DNA from: Escherichia coli
GTDB lineage: Bacteria > Pseudomonadota > Gammaproteobacteria > Enterobacterales > Enterobacteriaceae
NCBI RefSeq assembly: GCF_003991155.1
Contig: NZ_CP031293.1
Reading direction: 5' to 3' (one strand)
DNA: 64,000 bases
Part shown: positions 7,350 through 17,341 of the stretch, piece after piece
How positions within the stretch are numbered: the first letter of the stretch is position 1
Layout of the letters: each line of letters starts with the position of its first letter
The notes under the pieces: model-generated
Told to the model about the DNA's origin: nothing
Database searches by the model: none
Seen by the model: only the letters and a program-made list of their open reading frames with translations
Translations under genes and position numbers: made by a program

Positions 7350-8737
7350 GAATCACATCCTTTAATAAAACTCATTATTCGTGACCAAAAAGAGTCTTTT
7401 TTGTATATAGGGTTTTTATCGTTTAATGGTAAAGGATCGTCTGTTGGTATAACGGCTGTATTTCTTGGCCCAACATTTGTTTTAGTAAGTGAATCTTTGG
7501 AAGCATCAAACTCTACATAAGAACCATTCTTCCATGCCCCTGTTTCTGCACCTGCCGTTTTAGGATCTCCAAATGGCTCCACCTCAACGTGTACACCAAC
7601 AGGATTGCCTCTGGCAGGGTTGATAGACCCATCCTTGCTAATTCCATCAATACCCTCTGTTGAAGTATGATGTCTAACTCTAACAGTATCGTCACCAGTT
7701 AACCCTAACGGATCAATAATTTTTAGCGGATTAAATACATATCCATACAGGCAATCCCCACCTCTCAGCCCCATCGGATCAGCACACAGATACTGCCCCG
7801 TATCGCAATCATAATACCTGAATCGGTTATAGTACAGGCCTGACTCAACATCCTCGTACTGCCCCGGAAAACGTAACCGGCATGTGGGCGCATCTTCTTT
7901 ACTGATGCCTTCCTCACGCCCCCAGAGCTGCTGCTTGCCTTTCCAGACTATCAGACCCTCTTCGGTCAGCAGTTCTTGTACGCGGCCAGTTGTGTCTGTT
8001 ACCGCATAATGCAGTTGCCCCTTTTCATAACGCGCAAACGGCGTGAAATCTCCCGGCTCGTATATCCAGCGGATGGCGTTTTCATCTTCCGGTTTGCCGT
8101 CAGCGCCAACCGGAATTTCCGCCGTCAACTGGTCGCCGTTCCAGTGAAAATCCATGCCGCGTTTGTCGCGGCTGGTACAGCGCTTGCTGATGCGCCTGCC
8201 GAACGGGTCATACTTATATTCCCAGCGTTCGCCCTCCGGTGTTTCCAGTCCGGTCAACTGGCTGCGTGCATCCCATTTATAACGCCATTCCAGTGGGCGA
8301 TAACCCCCTTTATCCACCAGTTTCTGTACCAGCCTGCCGTTAACATCATATTTCCAGGTGATGTTGTGCGCATTCACCACCCGGACAAATCTCCCGTCTT
8401 CCCCTTTTCCGGTGTCCGGGTTGATGCGATGCGTCGAGTGCCGCCAGCCTTCATGTTCCCGCGATACCACACGACCATGCTGCTGTTGCTGGTGCGTCTC
8501 GCTTTCCAGTACGTTATTCACCCTGATCTGGCGACGGGTAATGTTCAGGTTTTTATCGTAAGTGAACAGCTCCTCGCACAGCGGAAACTGGCTGGAATCA
8601 CCCGTCCAGGTGGCGTGGCTTATCTGGTCGTTTGCCGTGATGGTGTTGAACATGGAGCCGCGCAGCGAGTCGGCGATTGCGGTGAGGTTATACGCTTTGT
8701 CGTAGCTTCGCTGCGTCGGGAGGTTTCCATGCCGCAC
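7346..8737 (-). CDS. orphan Rhs C-terminal fragment: end of YD-repeat core plus variable C-terminal toxin domain
   Basis: YD-repeat-like segments (YKYDPFGRR, WIYEPGDFTP) and the core-terminating motif YYNRFRYYDCDTGQYLCADPMGL...DPLGL, followed by a ~115-aa unrelated C-terminal domain; GC-rich core against AT-rich tip. No full-length Rhs N-terminus upstream. Confidence 0.75.
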   Translation of the reverse strand: MRHGNLPTQRSYDKAYNLTAIADSLRGSMFNTITANDQISHATWTGDSSQFPLCEELFTYDKNLNITRRQIRVNNVLESETHQQQQHGRVVSREHEGWRHSTHRINPDTGKGEDGRFVRVVNAHNITWKYDVNGRLVQKLVDKGGYRPLEWRYKWDARSQLTGLETPEGERWEYKYDPFGRRISKRCTSRDKRGMDFHWNGDQLTAEIPVGADGKPEDENAIRWIYEPGDFTPFARYEKGQLHYAVTDTTGRVQELLTEEGLIVWKGKQQLWGREEGISKEDAPTCRLRFPGQYEDVESGLYYNRFRYYDCDTGQYLCADPMGLRGGDCLYGYVFNPLKIIDPLGLTGDDTVRVRHHTSTEGIDGISKDGSINPARGNPVGVHVEVEPFGDPKTAGAETGAWKNGSYVEFDASKDSLTKTNVGPRNTAVIPTDDPLPLNDKNPIYKKDSFWSRIMSFIKGCDS

Positions 8738-9763: not shown

Positions 9764-11013
<1,250 letters not shown>

Positions 11014-11016
11014 CCA

Positions 11017-11385
11017 CTACAATGAGAGCATAAGTACACCTGCCGTCATTTCTGGTACGGCAACGCCCCCCGGTGTATAAGCTGTCCCGTTAATGATGAT
11101 GTCACAGGCGGGTTTCAGGGGGGCGAGGTCGCTTTCGCGCAGTACCGGAGATGTGTTCATCTCCCCGGCATACTCATCTTCCACACACAGCGGTAGCGGC
11201 GGGTTTTCGATAAGTTGGGTTTGCCACTGACCATTTTCGTCCCGTTGCAGCCGGAAGCCCGTTTTCATGGCGATAACGCGGTGACGTTCGCTATGTTTAT
11301 CATCCATCGCATATTCTATCGCTGAAAACGGCGTCAGGTTACGAAATTCCATATTGCACCCCGATCCCGTCTGTACCTGTCGCAA
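11017..11385 (-). pseudogene. N-terminal fragment of a gene truncated at the IS right end
   Basis: ORF runs into the IS right terminus and hits a stop inside the inverted repeat. N-terminus MEFRNLTPF... is tentatively reminiscent of T6SS-associated DUF2169-type proteins, from memory only. Confidence 0.35.
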
Positions 11386-11790
11386 AACATAATTCTACAG
11401 ATGGCACAGTATCCCCCTGATACAGGTAAAAACTTATTTCACGGAAACCGGCATAGCAAACTGGATGACACAATACCGGGCAAAACGATAAGTATGGTTA
11501 CTATATGAAACGGAATACTCCCGTTTCGTATTATTTTTTTTGACTGATATCAACGGGACGAATTAACTGACAGGATATTTACTGGAAAGTGTCTGCATAT
11601 TGCTCAATATATTTTTAATGGAAATGTATTCTCCATTAATATTTATGGTGTGATTGTGTTTCCCTGTGTGTCAGCTTCCGCTAAACCCCTTGCTGCAAAT
11701 TACCGATCATTGTATTGTTGCGCCGCGCCTGCAAAATCAGGCGTCGGGATTGGAACCCTGATAAGTGTTACAGGCGACATATAGCGCATT

Positions 11791-12426
11791 TTGCGTCTTT
11801 TTTATGTCGTGCGTCTGGCTGCATCTCAATGGTGGGCTGGACGGGGGCGTCGCAAGACGCGCCGGTTTCCTGTAACACCGGTAGTTCCAACCCCGTTCAG
11901 TTCACCACCAATGAGATTGGAACCTCTGGTGGTGGAATTACCACCCGTTACAGGAGGCTATCCTATGGTTATCATCCTTTCCCCTGACTGCGACTTACTT
12001 TCCATCCCCTTCAGTGCCACCACGGATTTCACCGATCTGGCCGACTACTGCGATCGCTTCGCTGAAACCCTGATCGAATGCCACGATCCGGCGCTGAAAA
12101 TGGCGCTTTATGGCAGGATCAACGCCAGCCTTGCGCTGCTGCGTCCCTCGTTGGGCGAGCCGATCCCGCTGCACCTGATCGACCGTTTCATTGTGGACAC
12201 GCTTCCCGACGTTTCACCGCGCTTTGAACCCGGCGCAGGGCTGCTCTGTGACTACTGTCTGGCGCTGACGCAGGTATTAAGCGGGCGGTCGCTGCTGCCG
12301 GAAACCGAAACCACACTGACCGGGTTGCTGTGCGAACTGGTCTGGTATTTTGCCGCCGACCTTAAAGCGCCGCAGTGGCTGCGCACCGCTGATGGCTTAC
12401 AGGTTATTGACGGGGGGACGGTATGA
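11791..12426 (+). CDS. hypothetical protein, translationally coupled to the downstream Ner-like gene
   Basis: GC-rich ORF whose stop overlaps the Ner-like start (ATGA at 12423-12426); true start uncertain. Confidence 0.35.
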   Translation: MRLFYVVRLAASQWWAGRGRRKTRRFPVTPVVPTPFSSPPMRLEPLVVELPPVTGGYPMVIILSPDCDLLSIPFSATTDFTDLADYCDRFAETLIECHDPALKMALYGRINASLALLRPSLGEPIPLHLIDRFIVDTLPDVSPRFEPGAGLLCDYCLALTQVLSGRSLLPETETTLTGLLCELVWYFAADLKAPQWLRTADGLQVIDGGTV

Positions 12427-12677
12427 TGCAACCGGACTGGCATCCCGCCGATATCATGGCAGCACTGCGAAAACGTGGTACGTCGCTGGCAGCGGTTTCC
12501 CGCAAAGCGGGACTGGCGTCCGCCACACTGGCAAACGCGCTGAGCCGCTCCTGGCCGCGTGGCGAAAAACTCATTGCGGATGCGCTGGAAACATCACCGG
12601 AAATTATCTGGCCGTCCAGATATTTCGATGATCAGGGCAACCGTATTGTAAGGCTCATGCGAAAGCAGTGCTCCTGA
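12423..12677 (+). CDS. Ner/Nlp-family DNA-binding protein
   Basis: DWHPADIMAALRKRGTSLAAVSRKAGLASATLANALSRSWPRGEKLIADAL...IWPSRY matches E. coli Nlp / Mu Ner closely from memory. Confidence 0.8.
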   Translation: MMQPDWHPADIMAALRKRGTSLAAVSRKAGLASATLANALSRSWPRGEKLIADALETSPEIIWPSRYFDDQGNRIVRLMRKQCS

Positions 12678-12796
12678 TGACAGAAGTGTCAGAAACACGA
12701 TTACAGTAAAATCAGGCTCTCCCGGCTCTCTGCCTGCTTCTGCTGGCGGAGAGCCGGGAGAAGACAAGCGAAGCGCGGCAGGATGCCATCCCGCTG

Positions 12797-13099
12797 TTGA
12801 TAACAGTCACAACCGGAGTCGTTTTTATGCACATGTTTAATCCACCCCATCCGGGTGACGTCCTTCGCGATTATCTGGACGGCGTGAGCATCACGCAGGC
12901 CGCTTCCCGGCTTCAGGTATCGCGCTCGCGGTTATCCCGTATCCTCAATGGACATGCACCAGTGACGGCTGATATGGCGCTACGTCTGGCGGCGCTGCTG
13001 AATACCCGCGCTGAACTGTGGACGGGGATGCAGTCTGAGTATGGCCTCTGGCAGGCGTCACAAAAACCACGACCCGTTATCCGGTCATTGCGGGGTTAA
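12797..13099 (+). CDS. HigA-family HTH (XRE-type) antitoxin-like protein, no adjacent HigB-like toxin ORF
   Basis: NPPHPGDVLRDYLDGVSITQAASRLQVSRSRLSRILNGHAPVTADMALRLAALLNT...ELW is the HigA/VapI pattern; likely start at internal Met (12827 or 12833). Confidence 0.7.
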   Translation: MITVTTGVVFMHMFNPPHPGDVLRDYLDGVSITQAASRLQVSRSRLSRILNGHAPVTADMALRLAALLNTRAELWTGMQSEYGLWQASQKPRPVIRSLRG

Positions 13100-13186
13100 C
13101 TCAGCATTTTACATTCACAAATACACGATAAAATCAGGGGGAAAACCAATATCCAGAAAAATGAGTTTCCCCTTTCTGCGCCAGAA

Positions 13187-15521
13187 ATAACGGTGTAATC
13201 TCCCTCCTGCATTGTCGCCTTCGGGCACCCTTTGGCTTCATGGTCTGCAAGAAGCCCCTGATTTATCAGGATGACCAGCCCTTACTACCGGTACGACCTC
13301 CGCAATACCGGAACGCGAAAGCGTTTGAGGCTAAGAGTACATACACCCGAACGGCTTCATCGTCATTGCTTAACGGCAACAGTCTTCACCGGCTGAACGG
13401 CTTTTCTTTGCCGGAATTTCCCGACTGCCCCATACCCAGCTGAAAACAGCGCCCTTTACATGACGGGCTGCGGCCTGCATTGCCGTCAGGCTTTGCTGCC
13501 GCGTGACCGTCATTCTGCACCAGAAACGCAACGTTTACCCCCTGCACCAGATGAGGCGTCACTTTGGTCGCGCCAGCGAAAAAGCAAAGTGACGCCGTAC
13601 AACATACCGCCGCAAGCCGCGCCAGTTCTGGCCTGCGTCCTGTTTCCGCCGTCTGACATGCCCTTTGGGGCGCTGTCAGTCCAGAGTAAAGGAGAAAAAG
13701 ATCGATACCGAGGGGGGCACGACGCCCCGGAGATACCCCTGCTTCGTCAGGCAGTCTGTACCGCGTACAGCCTGAAACTCCCTAAACCTCAACAATCAGC
13801 CACTCCGGCGTGAAGGTATCGTTCTGGCGCAGCCAAAAAGCACACGCCGGAGACTGTTTGTTTTTTGTTGCAGGGGGTAGTTATGAGCAAATTAAGCAGT
13901 GAAATGAAGGCGCTGGCGAAAAAAGCAGGCGGTAGTTTCAGAACGGTGGACTACCGTATCCATGCCACGAAGCGGTTCAGTCAGCATTTACGCGAACTGA
14001 ATATTCAGATCCAGCGGGTGGAGCAGATCAAAGTTCGCCATATCGAATGCTATATTCAGGAGCGGCTGGAGCAGGATATTGGCCTGCGCACGCTGCAAAA
14101 CGAAATGGCGGCGCTGCGGGCCGTGCTGAGGCTGGCGGGACGCCGGCAGGTGGTGGAGCATCCGCGCCTGACCAATAAGGCGCTGGGGCTGTCAGGTGCT
14201 TCGCGCAACGGCACGCGTCGCGCCATCACGCCGGAACATTATGAAAAAGTGATGGAGAACGCCCGCGCACAGGATGCGGGGCTGGCGGCAGCGGTGGAGA
14301 TCGCGCGACTGATGGGATTACGCTCGCAGGAGGCGGTACAGAGTTCACAGTCGCTGAAAACGTGGCTGAAAGCCATTTCCCGCGGCGAAACCCGGCTGAA
14401 AGTGGTGTTTGGCACCAAAGGCGGGCGTCCGCGTTACACGACGCTCCTGGACGCTGGCGCAGTCAGGAAGGCGGTGGAAAACGCATTACCGATCGCCAGA
14501 CAGCGCAATGGCAGGCTGATCGACAAGCCAGACCTTAAAACGGCGCTGGAGAGCTGGCACAAACAGGCCATTAAGGCGGGGCTGAAAGGGGAATTTTCCC
14601 CGCACTCGCTGCGTTATGCGTGGGCGCAGGACGCGATCCGCCATTATCTGGCGCAGGGATTCAGCGAAAAGGAATCGCTGGCGCTGACGGCGACGGATCT
14701 GGGTCATGGCGACGGTCGCGGCCGCTGGGTGAAACAGGTGTACGGCTACCGCTGGAAGGAGGAATAACGGCTTTCATGAATGGCGCAAAATAGTACGTTA
14801 CTGCGTAACGACAGCGATTTATCGTACCCTCTGTACCGGATCTGGCGCAGGGGGCGAGCGGGTTTGTATTGTGAAAATATCGTTACAGCATGACGAATAA
14901 ATATCAATAGCTCAGATTTTCCTGCTGAACCAATGTAGCTCGCCGGAATATTATAGTGATTACCCGGTAATCACTCGAAACGATCCCGATTAATAGCTGG
15001 TGTTTCAATCGTTTTACCGATATTACAGGTACAGGGTCGGGAAATTTTAAAATGTAAACTCACCGAGGCATCACATTAATTCTGGCGCAGGATTATATCT
15101 GAATAATTCTCTCTGTGTTTTCCTGCATCCTGTGACATATATTGCATGGTCACAGAATGTCTCATGATTTTATAAAAAATGCTGCGACGGTTTTTGACAT
15201 CATAACCTGCTGCATATAGATTAATAATTTTCGGTGCTTCATGTTATTTTTTTGCGCTCTGTGATCGTTATCTGGTGGTGAAAATACAATCTGGTGCAGA
15301 CTGTCATGGTGCATTTCTGAATAAACTGGTTGCGCCAGAAAGGGAAAGGGCCATAAAGGTTAAGGGGCGATAAGGGTAACAGCGCCTGACCGGAAAGGGC
15401 CGAAAACCAAAGAGCCAGAAACTGGCGCAGTCCTGAATGTGTGAAGTGGCGAGACGCTGGCGCAGATAACCGATCTTCCGGGGCTGGTGCAGATTATTTC
15501 GTCTCTGTATATCTGGTGCAG
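13187..15521. repeat. dispersed array of at least 10 copies of the decamer TCTGG(C/T)GCAG
   Basis: Copies at 13187-13195 (inverted), 13823-13832, 14841-14850, 15081-15090, 15289-15298, 15330-15338 (inverted, degenerate), 15421-15430, 15456-15465, 15483-15492, 15512-15521; mostly in non-coding DNA flanking the integrase-family gene. Confidence 0.7.
13883..14767 (+). CDS. tyrosine-recombinase (phage integrase) family protein, short form
   Basis: C-terminal FSPHSLRYAWAQDAIRHYL...GRWVKQVYGY has the HxxR...H...Y pattern of tyrosine recombinase catalytic domains; AGGGGG Shine-Dalgarno precedes ATG 13883. Confidence 0.5.
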   Translation: MSKLSSEMKALAKKAGGSFRTVDYRIHATKRFSQHLRELNIQIQRVEQIKVRHIECYIQERLEQDIGLRTLQNEMAALRAVLRLAGRRQVVEHPRLTNKALGLSGASRNGTRRAITPEHYEKVMENARAQDAGLAAAVEIARLMGLRSQEAVQSSQSLKTWLKAISRGETRLKVVFGTKGGRPRYTTLLDAGAVRKAVENALPIARQRNGRLIDKPDLKTALESWHKQAIKAGLKGEFSPHSLRYAWAQDAIRHYLAQGFSEKESLALTATDLGHGDGRGRWVKQVYGYRWKEE

Positions 15522-15579
15522 TTATAATATGTATCAGGGAAGGCTGTCCGGTATTTTATGACGCCTCTTTTAGAGTATA

Positions 15580-15654
15580 TTAATTGGTATTTCCGTGAAA
15601 ATATCGCTTATTGATAGTTTTTCATCTTCCGTGATTAACGCGTTAATCACGGAA
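15580..15654. promoter_or_regulatory. two adjacent palindromes (candidate operator or hairpin sites)
   Basis: Perfect 30-bp palindrome CTTCCGTGATTAACG/CGTTAATCACGGAAG, then an inverted repeat TACCTATCAA(N11)TTGATAGGTA. Confidence 0.4.
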
Positions 15655-15776
15655 GACTGTTACCTATCAAAAAAAGATATATTGATAGGTAACGGTCAAA
15701 TTTTATTTGGGGCCAAATAATTGTAGATACTTTCCGATTGGTAATAAAAAAGAACAACGGCAATACCTCTCAATAC

Positions 15777-15814
15777 AAAAAAGCAGATCCCGGCCAATCA
15801 GGATCTGCTTTTCC
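15777..15814 (-). terminator. intrinsic terminator downstream of the P4-type integrase reading frame
   Basis: Inverted repeat AAAAGCAGATCC...GGATCTGCTTTT followed on the minus strand by a T-run. Confidence 0.55.
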
Positions 15815-15841
15815 ATTTTAATGATTTCAGCTATTTATGAC

Positions 15842-17104
15842 TCAGGCTGCCTTATGCTGCCGCGCATAAATATACGGCGCGACATACCCCTCGCGGCACA
15901 CATCCAGATAATCCGACCACCACTGCATCATGGCCTTTCTGGCCTCCAGATGCTCCGCTTTATGCACATAGGCCGCCCGCACGCTGTTACGCTCCTAGTG
16001 GCTCATTTGCCGTTCCACCGTATCGCGTGACCAGAGATCCGACTCTACCAGGGCGCTACAGGCCATTGCGCGAAGTCCATGTCCGCACACATCGGTTTTC
16101 GTATCATACCCCATCAGGCGCAGCGCCCGGTTGGTTGTGTTTTCGCTCATTGGCTTGTACGGGTTATGGTCGCCGGGGAATACCAGATCCAGATGGCCGG
16201 AAAGCTCCTGTATCTGTTTCAGAATGGCAATCGCCTGGCGGGAGAGTGGCACGATATGCGGACTACGCATTTTTGCGCCACGCCCCGAAAACCGTACTTT
16301 GTCGATGGCCTCGCGGGTGGCGGGGATGGTCCAGATTTTGTGCCTGAAATCAATCTCGCTCCAGCGGGCGAAACGCAGTTCGCTGGAACGGATGAACAGG
16401 TGCAGTGTCAGCACCACCGCCAGCCGGGTTAACTCCCGGCCCTGCCGGTAATCGCCAATACGATCGAGCAATTCAGGCAACCGCTCCAGCGGTAAAGCGG
16501 GATAGTGATTCTTGACGGGAGAGGCGACTACACCATCCAGATGCTGCGCCGGGTTGCTTTCGGTCAGTCCCTGCTGAACGGCATAGCGCATGATGTTGCT
16601 GAGTTGCTGCCGGGTTCGGGACGCGACTTCCAGAAAGCCCTTATCCTCAATAACCCGCAGCAAAGCCGTGAAATCCTGCGTTTTAAGCGCAGCAACGGGC
16701 AGATGACCAATCGCCGGGAAGATATGGTTTTCCATACTGGCGAGAATACGGGCGGCATAATCAGCCGACCATTTTTTGTTGGTTTTGTGCCAGGCCAGCG
16801 CCACCGCCTTAAAGCACTTTTCAGGGGAGCAGGCGGATTTCTCTGCCATACGCTGTTGCGCCGGGTTGATATTCTGCGCCAGTAGCTTGCGGATACCGTC
16901 GCGCTGTTGCCTGGCTTCTGCCAATGAGACAAGCGGATATGCGCCAAGACTGACTCTGGATTCTTTTCCGTTGAAACGATATTTGAGATACCAGATGCGT
17001 GAACCACCCGGATTGACGAGCAGATACAGACCCTGAGAGTCGGAGAGTTTTACCGGACGGGAAGAAGACTTTAACTTGCGGATTTTAGAATCGTTTAAAG
17101 ACAT
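15842..17104 (-). pseudogene. P4-type tyrosine integrase interrupted by an in-frame amber codon (TAG at 15995-15997)
   Basis: N-terminus MSLNDSKIRKLK...GLYLLVNPGGSRIWYLKYRFNGKESRVSLGAYP is P4-integrase-like. Translation stops after ...VERQMSH, but the same frame continues ERNSVRAAYVHKAEHLEARKAMMQWWSDYLD... to a stop at 15842-15844; the catalytic-Tyr region lies after the amber. Confidence 0.75.
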
Positions 17105-17265: not shown

Positions 17266-17341
17266 TGGCTCCTCTGACTGGACTCGAACCAGTGACATAC
17301 GGATTAACAGTCCGCCGTTCTACCGACTGAACTACAGAGGA
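17266..17341 (-). tRNA. tRNA-Asn (GUU)
   Basis: 76-nt reverse complement of TCCTCTGTAGTTCAGTCGGTAGAACGGCGGACTGTTAATCCG...GGAGCCA; anticodon loop CUGUUAA. Confidence 0.95.

Follow-up and report, generated by a model that had tools for sequence, protein, structure and literature searches.

What does a gene for a Ner-like regulator control, and what controls it, when it is coupled to an upstream open reading frame (ORF) and followed by a HigA-family gene with no toxin partner? The question is raised by a genomic island in a 64,000-nucleotide stretch of the Escherichia coli contig NZ_CP031293.1 (assembly GCF_003991155.1; hereafter the window), which a preliminary description had read as either an island regulatory switch or an antitoxin-only remnant. 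The island is chromosomal, ends at a tRNA-Asn gene and is 100% identical in several RefSeq genomes. We compared the locus with 53 related loci from a genome collection and about 10 more from other sources. We propose, with a probability of about 0.7, that positions 11690-12761 are an antisense-RNA "immunity" cassette of the P4/P1 type that gates a two-gene operon, orf153-Ner, and that this RNA holds the operon translationally off until the RNA is titrated or depleted. All features described below are on the plus strand unless stated otherwise.

The cassette opens with a putative sigma-70-like promoter (11690..11718), read from the sequence as a -35 element TTGCTG (11690-95), a 17-nt spacer and a -10 element TATTGT (11713-18), from which transcription would start at about 11725. 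The promoter was absent from the output of a simple consensus scan; the pattern TTGC..N17..GTATNTT is kept in an alignment of about 48 related loci, and the match to the Rfam isrK model begins at 11725. This match (RF01394; 11725..11803; 61.4 bits, gathering score 50) marks a leader small RNA (sRNA) similar to IsrK and P4 SeqA. It contains two putative decoy sites, a1 (11748-57, GATTGGAACC) and b1 (11765-74, GUGUUACAGG (GTGTTACAGG)), and ends in a short terminator hairpin with a T-run (11784-96). It is followed by a C4/P4-CI-type antisense RNA (11825..11912; Rfam C4 RF01695, 84.6 bits, gathering score 45, E 4e-16), matched over the full length of the model (positions 1-87 of 87). The fold of this RNA is a closing stem enclosing two hairpins, and 15 of its 28 predicted pairs show double compensatory changes among 45 sequences. 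Two recognition elements are exposed in it, namely b' in the loop of hairpin 2 (11864-11876) and a', a single-stranded GUUCCAA (11884-11890). While b' is complementary to b1 and to a target site b2 (11947-59, GUUACAGGAGGCU), a' is complementary to a1 and to a target site a2 (11915-24, GATTGGAACC), and b2 includes the Shine-Dalgarno sequence AGGAGG (11952-57) of orf153. The isrK-type and C4 RNAs were found as a pair upstream of orf153 in all nine relatives scanned with Rfam.

Unconstrained RNAduplex predictions gave nothing informative, and a fold of the whole leader together with an analysis of loop and site covariation was used instead. The fold of 11724-11990 (z-score -5.8) predicts a 13-bp duplex between b' in the C4 loop (11864-76) and b2, in which the Shine-Dalgarno bases of orf153 have pairing probabilities of 0.84-1.0. 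The covariation analysis comprised 46 loci from many Enterobacterales, and in every one of them the C4 loops covary with both the upstream decoy pair and the downstream target pair. The a'-a2 duplex is perfect over at least 7 bp in 46/46 loci across about 7 a-types, which together with about 10 b-types give 31 a/b combinations. The mean length of the b'-b2 duplex is 9.1 bp within a locus and 5.9 bp between loci, and the corresponding values for b'-b1 are 9.2 and 5.8 bp. An independent repeat search arrived at the same sites, since its repeats D10 and I9 coincide with the pairing sites and are enriched over chance; GTTACAGG occurs five times in the window (1.1 expected), with three copies inside 190 nt in the predicted orientations. 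We regard the RNA genes and their pairing sites as very probably real and under selection. With more than 30 compensated specificity types, they also provide a natural series for studies of RNA-RNA recognition.

The first translated gene of the cassette, orf153 (11965..12426), takes the position that icd occupies in P1 and encodes an acidic (pI 4.2), helical protein of 153 codons. In the related loci its ATG is conserved, with a GGAGG Shine-Dalgarno sequence 7-9 nt upstream. The 150 homologues are 145-156 aa long with the same first residues and are all from Enterobacterales. A profile search of 1.84 billion representatives returned 229 clusters, again only from Enterobacterales, and nothing beyond family members and fusions to "Ash" (see below). 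The family is acidic throughout (pI 4.1-5.3), and its ratio of nonsynonymous to synonymous substitution rates (dN/dS) is 0.17-0.32. The AlphaFold2 model (pLDDT 72) is a four-helix bundle with a C-terminal beta-hairpin, for which Foldseek searches of the PDB and BFVD returned only generic four-helix bundles (E >0.03), and the protein has no match in Pfam, NCBIfam, PHROGs or PADLOC. A tblastn search of 50,697 phage records found no P1/P7 match and only one unannotated 1.5-kb fragment, and homology to P4 ORF151 was ruled out (hhalign probability 0.2%).

The second gene (12423..12677) encodes a winged helix-turn-helix (HTH) DNA-binding protein of 84 aa (pI 10.2), and its start overlaps the stop codon of orf153 as ATGA. 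The assignment to the Ner-like family made in the preliminary description was borne out by profile and structure searches: PF13693 (HTH_35) is matched at E 3e-33 (114 bits, gathering score 25, profile positions 1-71 of 75), and the structures matched are Mu Ner (PDB 1NEQ, E 1.4e-24) and Edwardsiella EnrR (7F9H, E 3e-21). The cutoff of the SfsB/Nlp equivalog NF007670 is not reached (115.3 bits, cutoff 150). The Ner-like gene is present in 33 loci and has a dN/dS of 0.09-0.24; the ATGA overlap, with an internal GAGG at the end of orf153, is kept in 30 of the 33. The 3' end of the orf153-Ner block is marked by a GC-rich hairpin (12718..12761; inverted repeat I1) with 20-nt arms and a 4-nt loop, which has a fold z-score of -4.5 and shows compensatory changes in relatives. 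A conserved AGACAAGCGAAGCGCGGCAG follows it in place of a U-tract, and relatives without the HigA-like gene keep the sequence match to about 12781. The hairpin may stabilise the 3' end, act as an unusual terminator or serve as a binding site.

The cassette recurs at a fixed place in an island backbone, in the order variable cargo, promoter, RNAs, orf153, Ner, variable spacer, EFASI RNA motif, Integrase_1-family gene, convergent P4-type integrase and tRNA gene (Asn or Thr). This order is found in Escherichia, Salmonella, Klebsiella, Pectobacterium, Brenneria, Citrobacter, Mixta and others. The cargo in these relatives includes type VI secretion system (T6SS) and Rhs genes, type I restriction-modification, DarTG, AbiE or TacAT. 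In the window, EFASI (13697..13825; Rfam RF02957, 99.1 bits, gathering score 51.2) precedes by about 58 nt a tyrosine-recombinase-like gene of the Integrase_1/Phage_int_SAM_2 type (13883..14767; PF12835 E 1e-58, PF12834 E 5e-38), a family that is found downstream of the cassette in about 25 related loci. Since EFASI has the same position in all eight relatives examined that have Integrase_1, it looks like the 5' leader of the recombinase-like gene. The P4-type integrase (15842..17104, minus strand) is a pseudogene with an internal stop near 15983-15995, according to both the ORF listing and RefSeq, and has intact orthologues in relatives. The attachment end of the island is the tRNA-Asn gene (17266..17341, minus strand; ARAGORN and Rfam tRNA). 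The cargo in the window consists of Rhs fragments, an IS3 element and a truncated DUF2169 gene. Together, the pseudogene integrase, the IS3 element and the Rhs fragments suggest that the island is no longer mobile in this lineage.

What the sequences show directly is that two structured RNA genes are present, that the C4 loops covary with both the decoy and the target sites, that orf153 and Ner are conserved as a coupled pair under purifying selection, and that the cassette keeps its place in the island backbone. The repression, its trigger, the processing of the RNA, the polarity and the targets of the Ner-like protein are inferences. We envisage that the promoter would fire into the leader and that most transcripts would probably end at the short terminator, producing an IsrK/SeqA-like sRNA that carries a1 and b1. 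Transcripts that read through would carry the C4/CI-like RNA, whose a' and b' elements would bind a2 and b2, either in cis or, after processing, in trans. With its Shine-Dalgarno sequence covered through b2, orf153 would remain untranslated, and since the Ner start lies inside the orf153 stop, Ner would be silenced together with it. Rho-dependent polarity would probably add to this silencing, as it does for P1 and P4. At low levels of the C4 RNA, or on its titration, for example by excess a1b1 decoy RNA (compare IsrK in Gifsy-1), orf153 and Ner would be made together. If this pairing model is true, changing b' from CCUGUAAC to CCUCUAAC would derepress the operon and a compensating change in b2 would restore repression. 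A regulator of the Ner/EnrR type placed under RNA control would also offer a testable route to switching on island genes.

The most likely activity of the Ner-like protein, judged from its relatives, is the binding of AT-rich island promoters, including its own, in the manner of Mu Ner and EnrR; candidate AT-rich regions are 11400-11700 and 14800-15900 (37-47% GC). Identity to both proteins is about 55-60% over the HTH core, and like the other PF13693 proteins (Mu Ner, Nlp/SfsB, EnrR) it is small and basic. EnrR is also island-encoded, but it carries about 13 additional residues at its N-terminus, an extension that contacts the minor groove and is missing here (the alignment begins at residue 4 of the Ner-like protein and at residue 17 of EnrR). 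EnrR-type genes further differ in leading an operon divergent from a 125-aa gene, with neither C4 nor orf153 upstream, and given this difference in gene context a link between the cassette and the EnrR locus itself was ruled out. EnrR binds AT-rich DNA, regulates its own promoter and counteracts H-NS at regulators of the type III secretion system and the T6SS (PMC9023278).

The RNA families and the regulatory logic are known from three systems. In the immunity region of P4 (PLE - seqA - cI/CI RNA (seqB) - seqC), the same Rfam order of isrK/c4-a1b1 followed by C4 is found on one strand, a complementary site pair lies on either side of the C4-type RNA, and a P4-type integrase is present at a tRNA gene. 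The genes downstream of it in P4 (epsilon, ORF151, ORF106 and the alpha primase) are absent here, and the operon here is directed towards the integrase/tRNA end. The immI region of P1/P7 (c4 - icd - ant) likewise has a promoter-proximal C4 RNA whose loops pair at the ribosome-binding site of the first ORF, which is translationally coupled to a second gene. The c4 RNA of P1/P7 blocks the ribosome-binding site of its target, and the specificity variants behind P1/P7 heteroimmunity arose, like those described here, by compensatory changes (PMC12197685). In place of Icd and an antirepressor, however, the operon here encodes the acidic orf153 protein and a Ner-type repressor rather than Ant, and the setting is a chromosomal island, not a phage. 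The isrK-orf45-anrP region of Gifsy-1 in Salmonella likewise has a terminator-bearing leader sRNA of the IsrK family, transcription that reads through into a C4-like region, a leader predicted to sequester the ribosome-binding site, and AUGA coupling to a regulator gene. IsrK supplied in trans was shown experimentally to raise translation in Gifsy-1 more than 100-fold via the AUGA-coupled upstream ORF (PMC4825925). In that region orf45 itself spans the C4-like RNA and is followed by an antirepressor gene, whereas here an ORF over the RNA varies from 8 to 199 aa among relatives without being conserved, and the coupled upstream ORF is a genuine protein of 153 aa. At the RNA elements, the cassette also shares about 73% identity with the immunity regions of SfV, phiP27, Stx phages and APSE-1, in which an antirepressor gene comes next. 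By comparison, the literature searched appears to contain no description of orf153 and Ner as cargo, of such a cassette in an island backbone or of so broad a range of specificity types. These comparisons show that the antisense-RNA immunity device of P1 and P4 is not confined to phages and satellites but has also been taken up, as a conserved module next to the integrase, by islands with T6SS/Rhs and defence systems.

Several observations weigh against the proposed cassette or against parts of it. The stem of the IsrK-type terminator in the window has 5 bp and is weaker than that of relatives, and the c4-a1b1 match (RF03163, 11712-11764) scores 45.2 bits, slightly under the gathering score of 46.7, although three relatives score 49-51 bits. 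Ner is not obligatory, since 20 of the 53 loci have orf153 without a detected Ner. Transferring the function of EnrR to the Ner-like protein is an analogy only, the context being different, and any role given to orf153 is a guess, as the protein has no recognisable family or fold. The published model of Gifsy-1 emphasises that IsrK activates and that an ORF spanning the C4-like region is translated; as that ORF is not conserved in this family, the details here may differ. With a pseudogene integrase and reduced cargo, the cassette in this strain may have nothing left to control.

RefSeq places here the 153 codons from ATG 11965 and, over the C4 RNA, a 52-codon "ash family protein" (11829-11987), which is the translated C4 RNA and matches PF10554 (Phage_ASH) with 33.9 bits. 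In relatives the equivalent ORF ranges from 8 to 199 aa and ends anywhere from -114 to +459 nt relative to the orf153 ATG, and given this scatter a leader peptide of the orf45/Ash type coupled to orf153 was ruled out. P4 carries the same spurious Ash/cI annotation over its RNA, since PF10554 also matches its obsolete "cI protein" ORF (8168-8584 in our P4 entry, L070). The epsilon protein of P4 belongs to another family, PF25738. A survey of P4-like satellites took PF10554 as an epsilon marker (PMC8628076). This marker really flags the immunity RNA locus, and "Ash family protein" calls and similar long ORFs are translations of C4/CI RNA, an annotation habit which these results correct.

An alternative to RNA control is the one adopted in the preliminary description, in which a regulatory pair would consist of proteins only, Ner and a single GC-rich protein of 211 codons to which it is coupled. 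The frame is indeed open from TTG 11791 to 12426, its core GC is 0.61, its stop overlaps the Ner start, and a few database entries are also called long (199-227 aa). However, codons 1-58 (11791-11964) take in the whole C4 RNA and the 3' end of the isrK-type RNA and so overlap two RNA-family matches, while the in-frame stretch upstream of the orf153 ATG is open for just 6-327 nt depending on the locus (50 related loci). Moreover, 20 of 20 aligned homologues share the same start methionine, and the long database calls are fusions to "Ash", that is, to translated RNA. Because of the RNA matches, the variable upstream frame, the conserved ATG and the homologue lengths, the 211-codon ORF is not one gene but 58 chance-open codons over a GC-rich structured RNA followed by the real 153-codon gene, and we give the single protein next to no credence. 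The idea of an island regulatory switch thus survives in part: orf153-Ner is a conserved, coupled two-gene operon beside the integrase of tRNA-linked islands, but the C4/CI-type antisense RNA with its decoy and target sites had been missed and was taken for the 5' third of a protein.

If the RNA is accepted, the cassette could still be the non-functional fossil of a degraded P4-like satellite or prophage, conserved through recent shared ancestry. The state of the island in this strain would agree with that, with its pseudogene integrase, the IS3 element that interrupts it and none of the P4-satellite genes psu, delta, sid, alpha and epsilon annotated between yeeN and the tRNA-Asn gene; Ner or orf153 is also truncated in some relatives. 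Yet the cassette extends over many genera at 50-80% protein identity with dN/dS of 0.09-0.32, its changes are compensated at three RNA sites in 31 specificity combinations and the ATGA coupling is kept. Since such conservation would not be expected without selection, we consider the fossil explanation improbable. A slightly better case, though one that we still think distinctly unlikely, can be made for orf153 being a growth-inhibiting, toxin-like protein, as are P1 Icd and P4 Kil, with the C4 RNA and/or Ner as its antitoxin in an island-stabilising addiction module. In both P1 (icd) and P4 (kil), the ORF that comes first after C4/CI is toxic to the host, the order of a first ORF and a small HTH gene with a 4-nt overlap resembles higBA, and translation of orf153 is predicted to be tightly gated at its Shine-Dalgarno sequence. 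In addition, orf153 occurs without Ner in 20 loci and almost never without the RNA, and islands with the cassette are rich in toxin-antitoxin and defence genes. Against this, orf153 is unlike any toxin family or PADLOC model, acidic four-helix bundles are not known as a toxin fold and there is no homology to P1 or P4 proteins.

What, then, is the HigA-family gene that follows the cassette? The gene (12827..13099) encodes 90 aa from ATG 12827, with an alternative start at TTG 12797, and consequently begins 149 or 119 nt downstream of the Ner-like gene, a distance put at about 120 bp in the preliminary description. The product scores 91.9 bits against TIGR02607 (equivalog cutoff 47.7) and matches solved HigA/VapI structures (E 1e-12), and a check with this profile hidden Markov model therefore agrees with the HigA-like call. 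It resembles the antitoxin of HigBA modules in its HTH antitoxin domain, in the N-terminal HPG motif and in having the length of partnered HigA, but differs from these modules in that both a HigB gene and a remnant of one are absent and that HigA directly follows unrelated genes in four contexts. The closest partnered homologues (about 60% identity) are from P1-like phage-plasmids, a lambdoid region and a Pantoea plasmid, and all have a 93-aa HigB of the RelE/ParE family 8-10 nt upstream. Here, the 149 nt upstream contain no ORF and the 64-kb window contains no matching HigB; when three HigB proteins of the cognate type were searched by tblastn against the window and against three further copies lacking a toxin, only noise was returned (best E 0.3-2, 6-kb database). 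In blastn searches with real higBA loci the similarity begins inside higA and includes no DNA from the 3' end of higB. The gene is thus solitary, as had been described, and since neither a HigB remnant nor higB 3'-end DNA is detectable, the loss of higB is old.

The HigA-like gene is restricted to Escherichia copies of the island. In strain CI5 it directly follows a T6SS impA-family gene and the cassette is absent, while in E. albertii it directly follows orf153 and Ner is absent. Because these contexts differ, it is an independent insertion, separate from and later than the cassette, and since HigA travels without the cassette the two do not form one unit. It could be a decaying leftover of a higBA module that has no current role, and in favour of this its nearest partnered homologues have HigB where none is found here and the gene is confined to Escherichia island copies. 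But the ORF is intact in four contexts with a dN/dS of 0.14-0.30 between copies, which argues that the gene is maintained, and it is kept even where the Ner cassette is absent. We therefore hold decay to be unlikely, if somewhat less so than the toxin and fossil explanations of the cassette, and favour a maintained orphan, which is probably a stand-alone repressor or a shield against incoming HigB toxins. The notion of an antitoxin-only remnant was correct in so far as the toxin has been lost, but this HigA is under purifying selection and offers a clean example of an orphan kept by selection. Since a consensus scan found no promoter-like site in 12678-12826 and the upstream hairpin lacks a U-tract, co-transcription of the gene by read-through from the cassette is plausible. 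The approximately 600 bp from higA to EFASI (13100-13700) are conserved in 817 E. coli genomes; the sole gene candidate in this segment, a minus-strand "hypothetical" of 58 codons, is not credible and there is no Rfam match, and relatives have no annotated gene downstream of higA.

In a broader and much more tentative reading, which we think is probably not correct as a whole, C4-orf153-Ner, EFASI and Integrase_1 would together be the control module of undescribed tRNA-integrated enterobacterial islands with T6SS or anti-phage cargo, the a/b specificities serving as an RNA "lock". If this were true, matching transcripts of phages or sister elements would titrate the C4 RNA and switch on orf153-Ner, phage infection or induction would be tied to the expression of island genes or to excision, and orf153 would be a new kind of effector, either anti-repressor-like or growth-inhibiting. 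No phage with an identical a' plus b' specificity was found in IMG/VR, where six viral contigs (L076-L081) share the b-type GTTACAGG only. These contigs carry unrelated short phage ORFs (63-120 aa) that have about 7 codons after b2 (MATTPTQ...) in common with the orf153 family, and the exchangeable RNA module therefore reaches a few codons into the gene that it controls.

Some further features of the islands were observed. On the side of the cassette away from the tRNA gene, the T6SS-associated DUF2169 gene (11017-11385, minus strand) is truncated by the IS3 element (9800-11013), and other strains have a full T6SS or a 4-kb Rhs gene on this side. The IS3 element carries a match to isrC RNA (9832-9954, 145 bits). 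A link to the EARL/ROD21 islands, which also occur at tRNA-Asn, was ruled out since their backbone is different. In some relatives, other integrase-associated RNA motifs, STAXI and sRNA-Xcc1, are found either within the variable spacer or directly before the cassette (7895-8041 of L010; 6542-6626 of L013). In Escherichia whittamii (L010/L022) and in Affinibrenneria (L035/L036), two cassettes of unlike a/b specificity lie about 10-13 kb apart in back-to-back islands.

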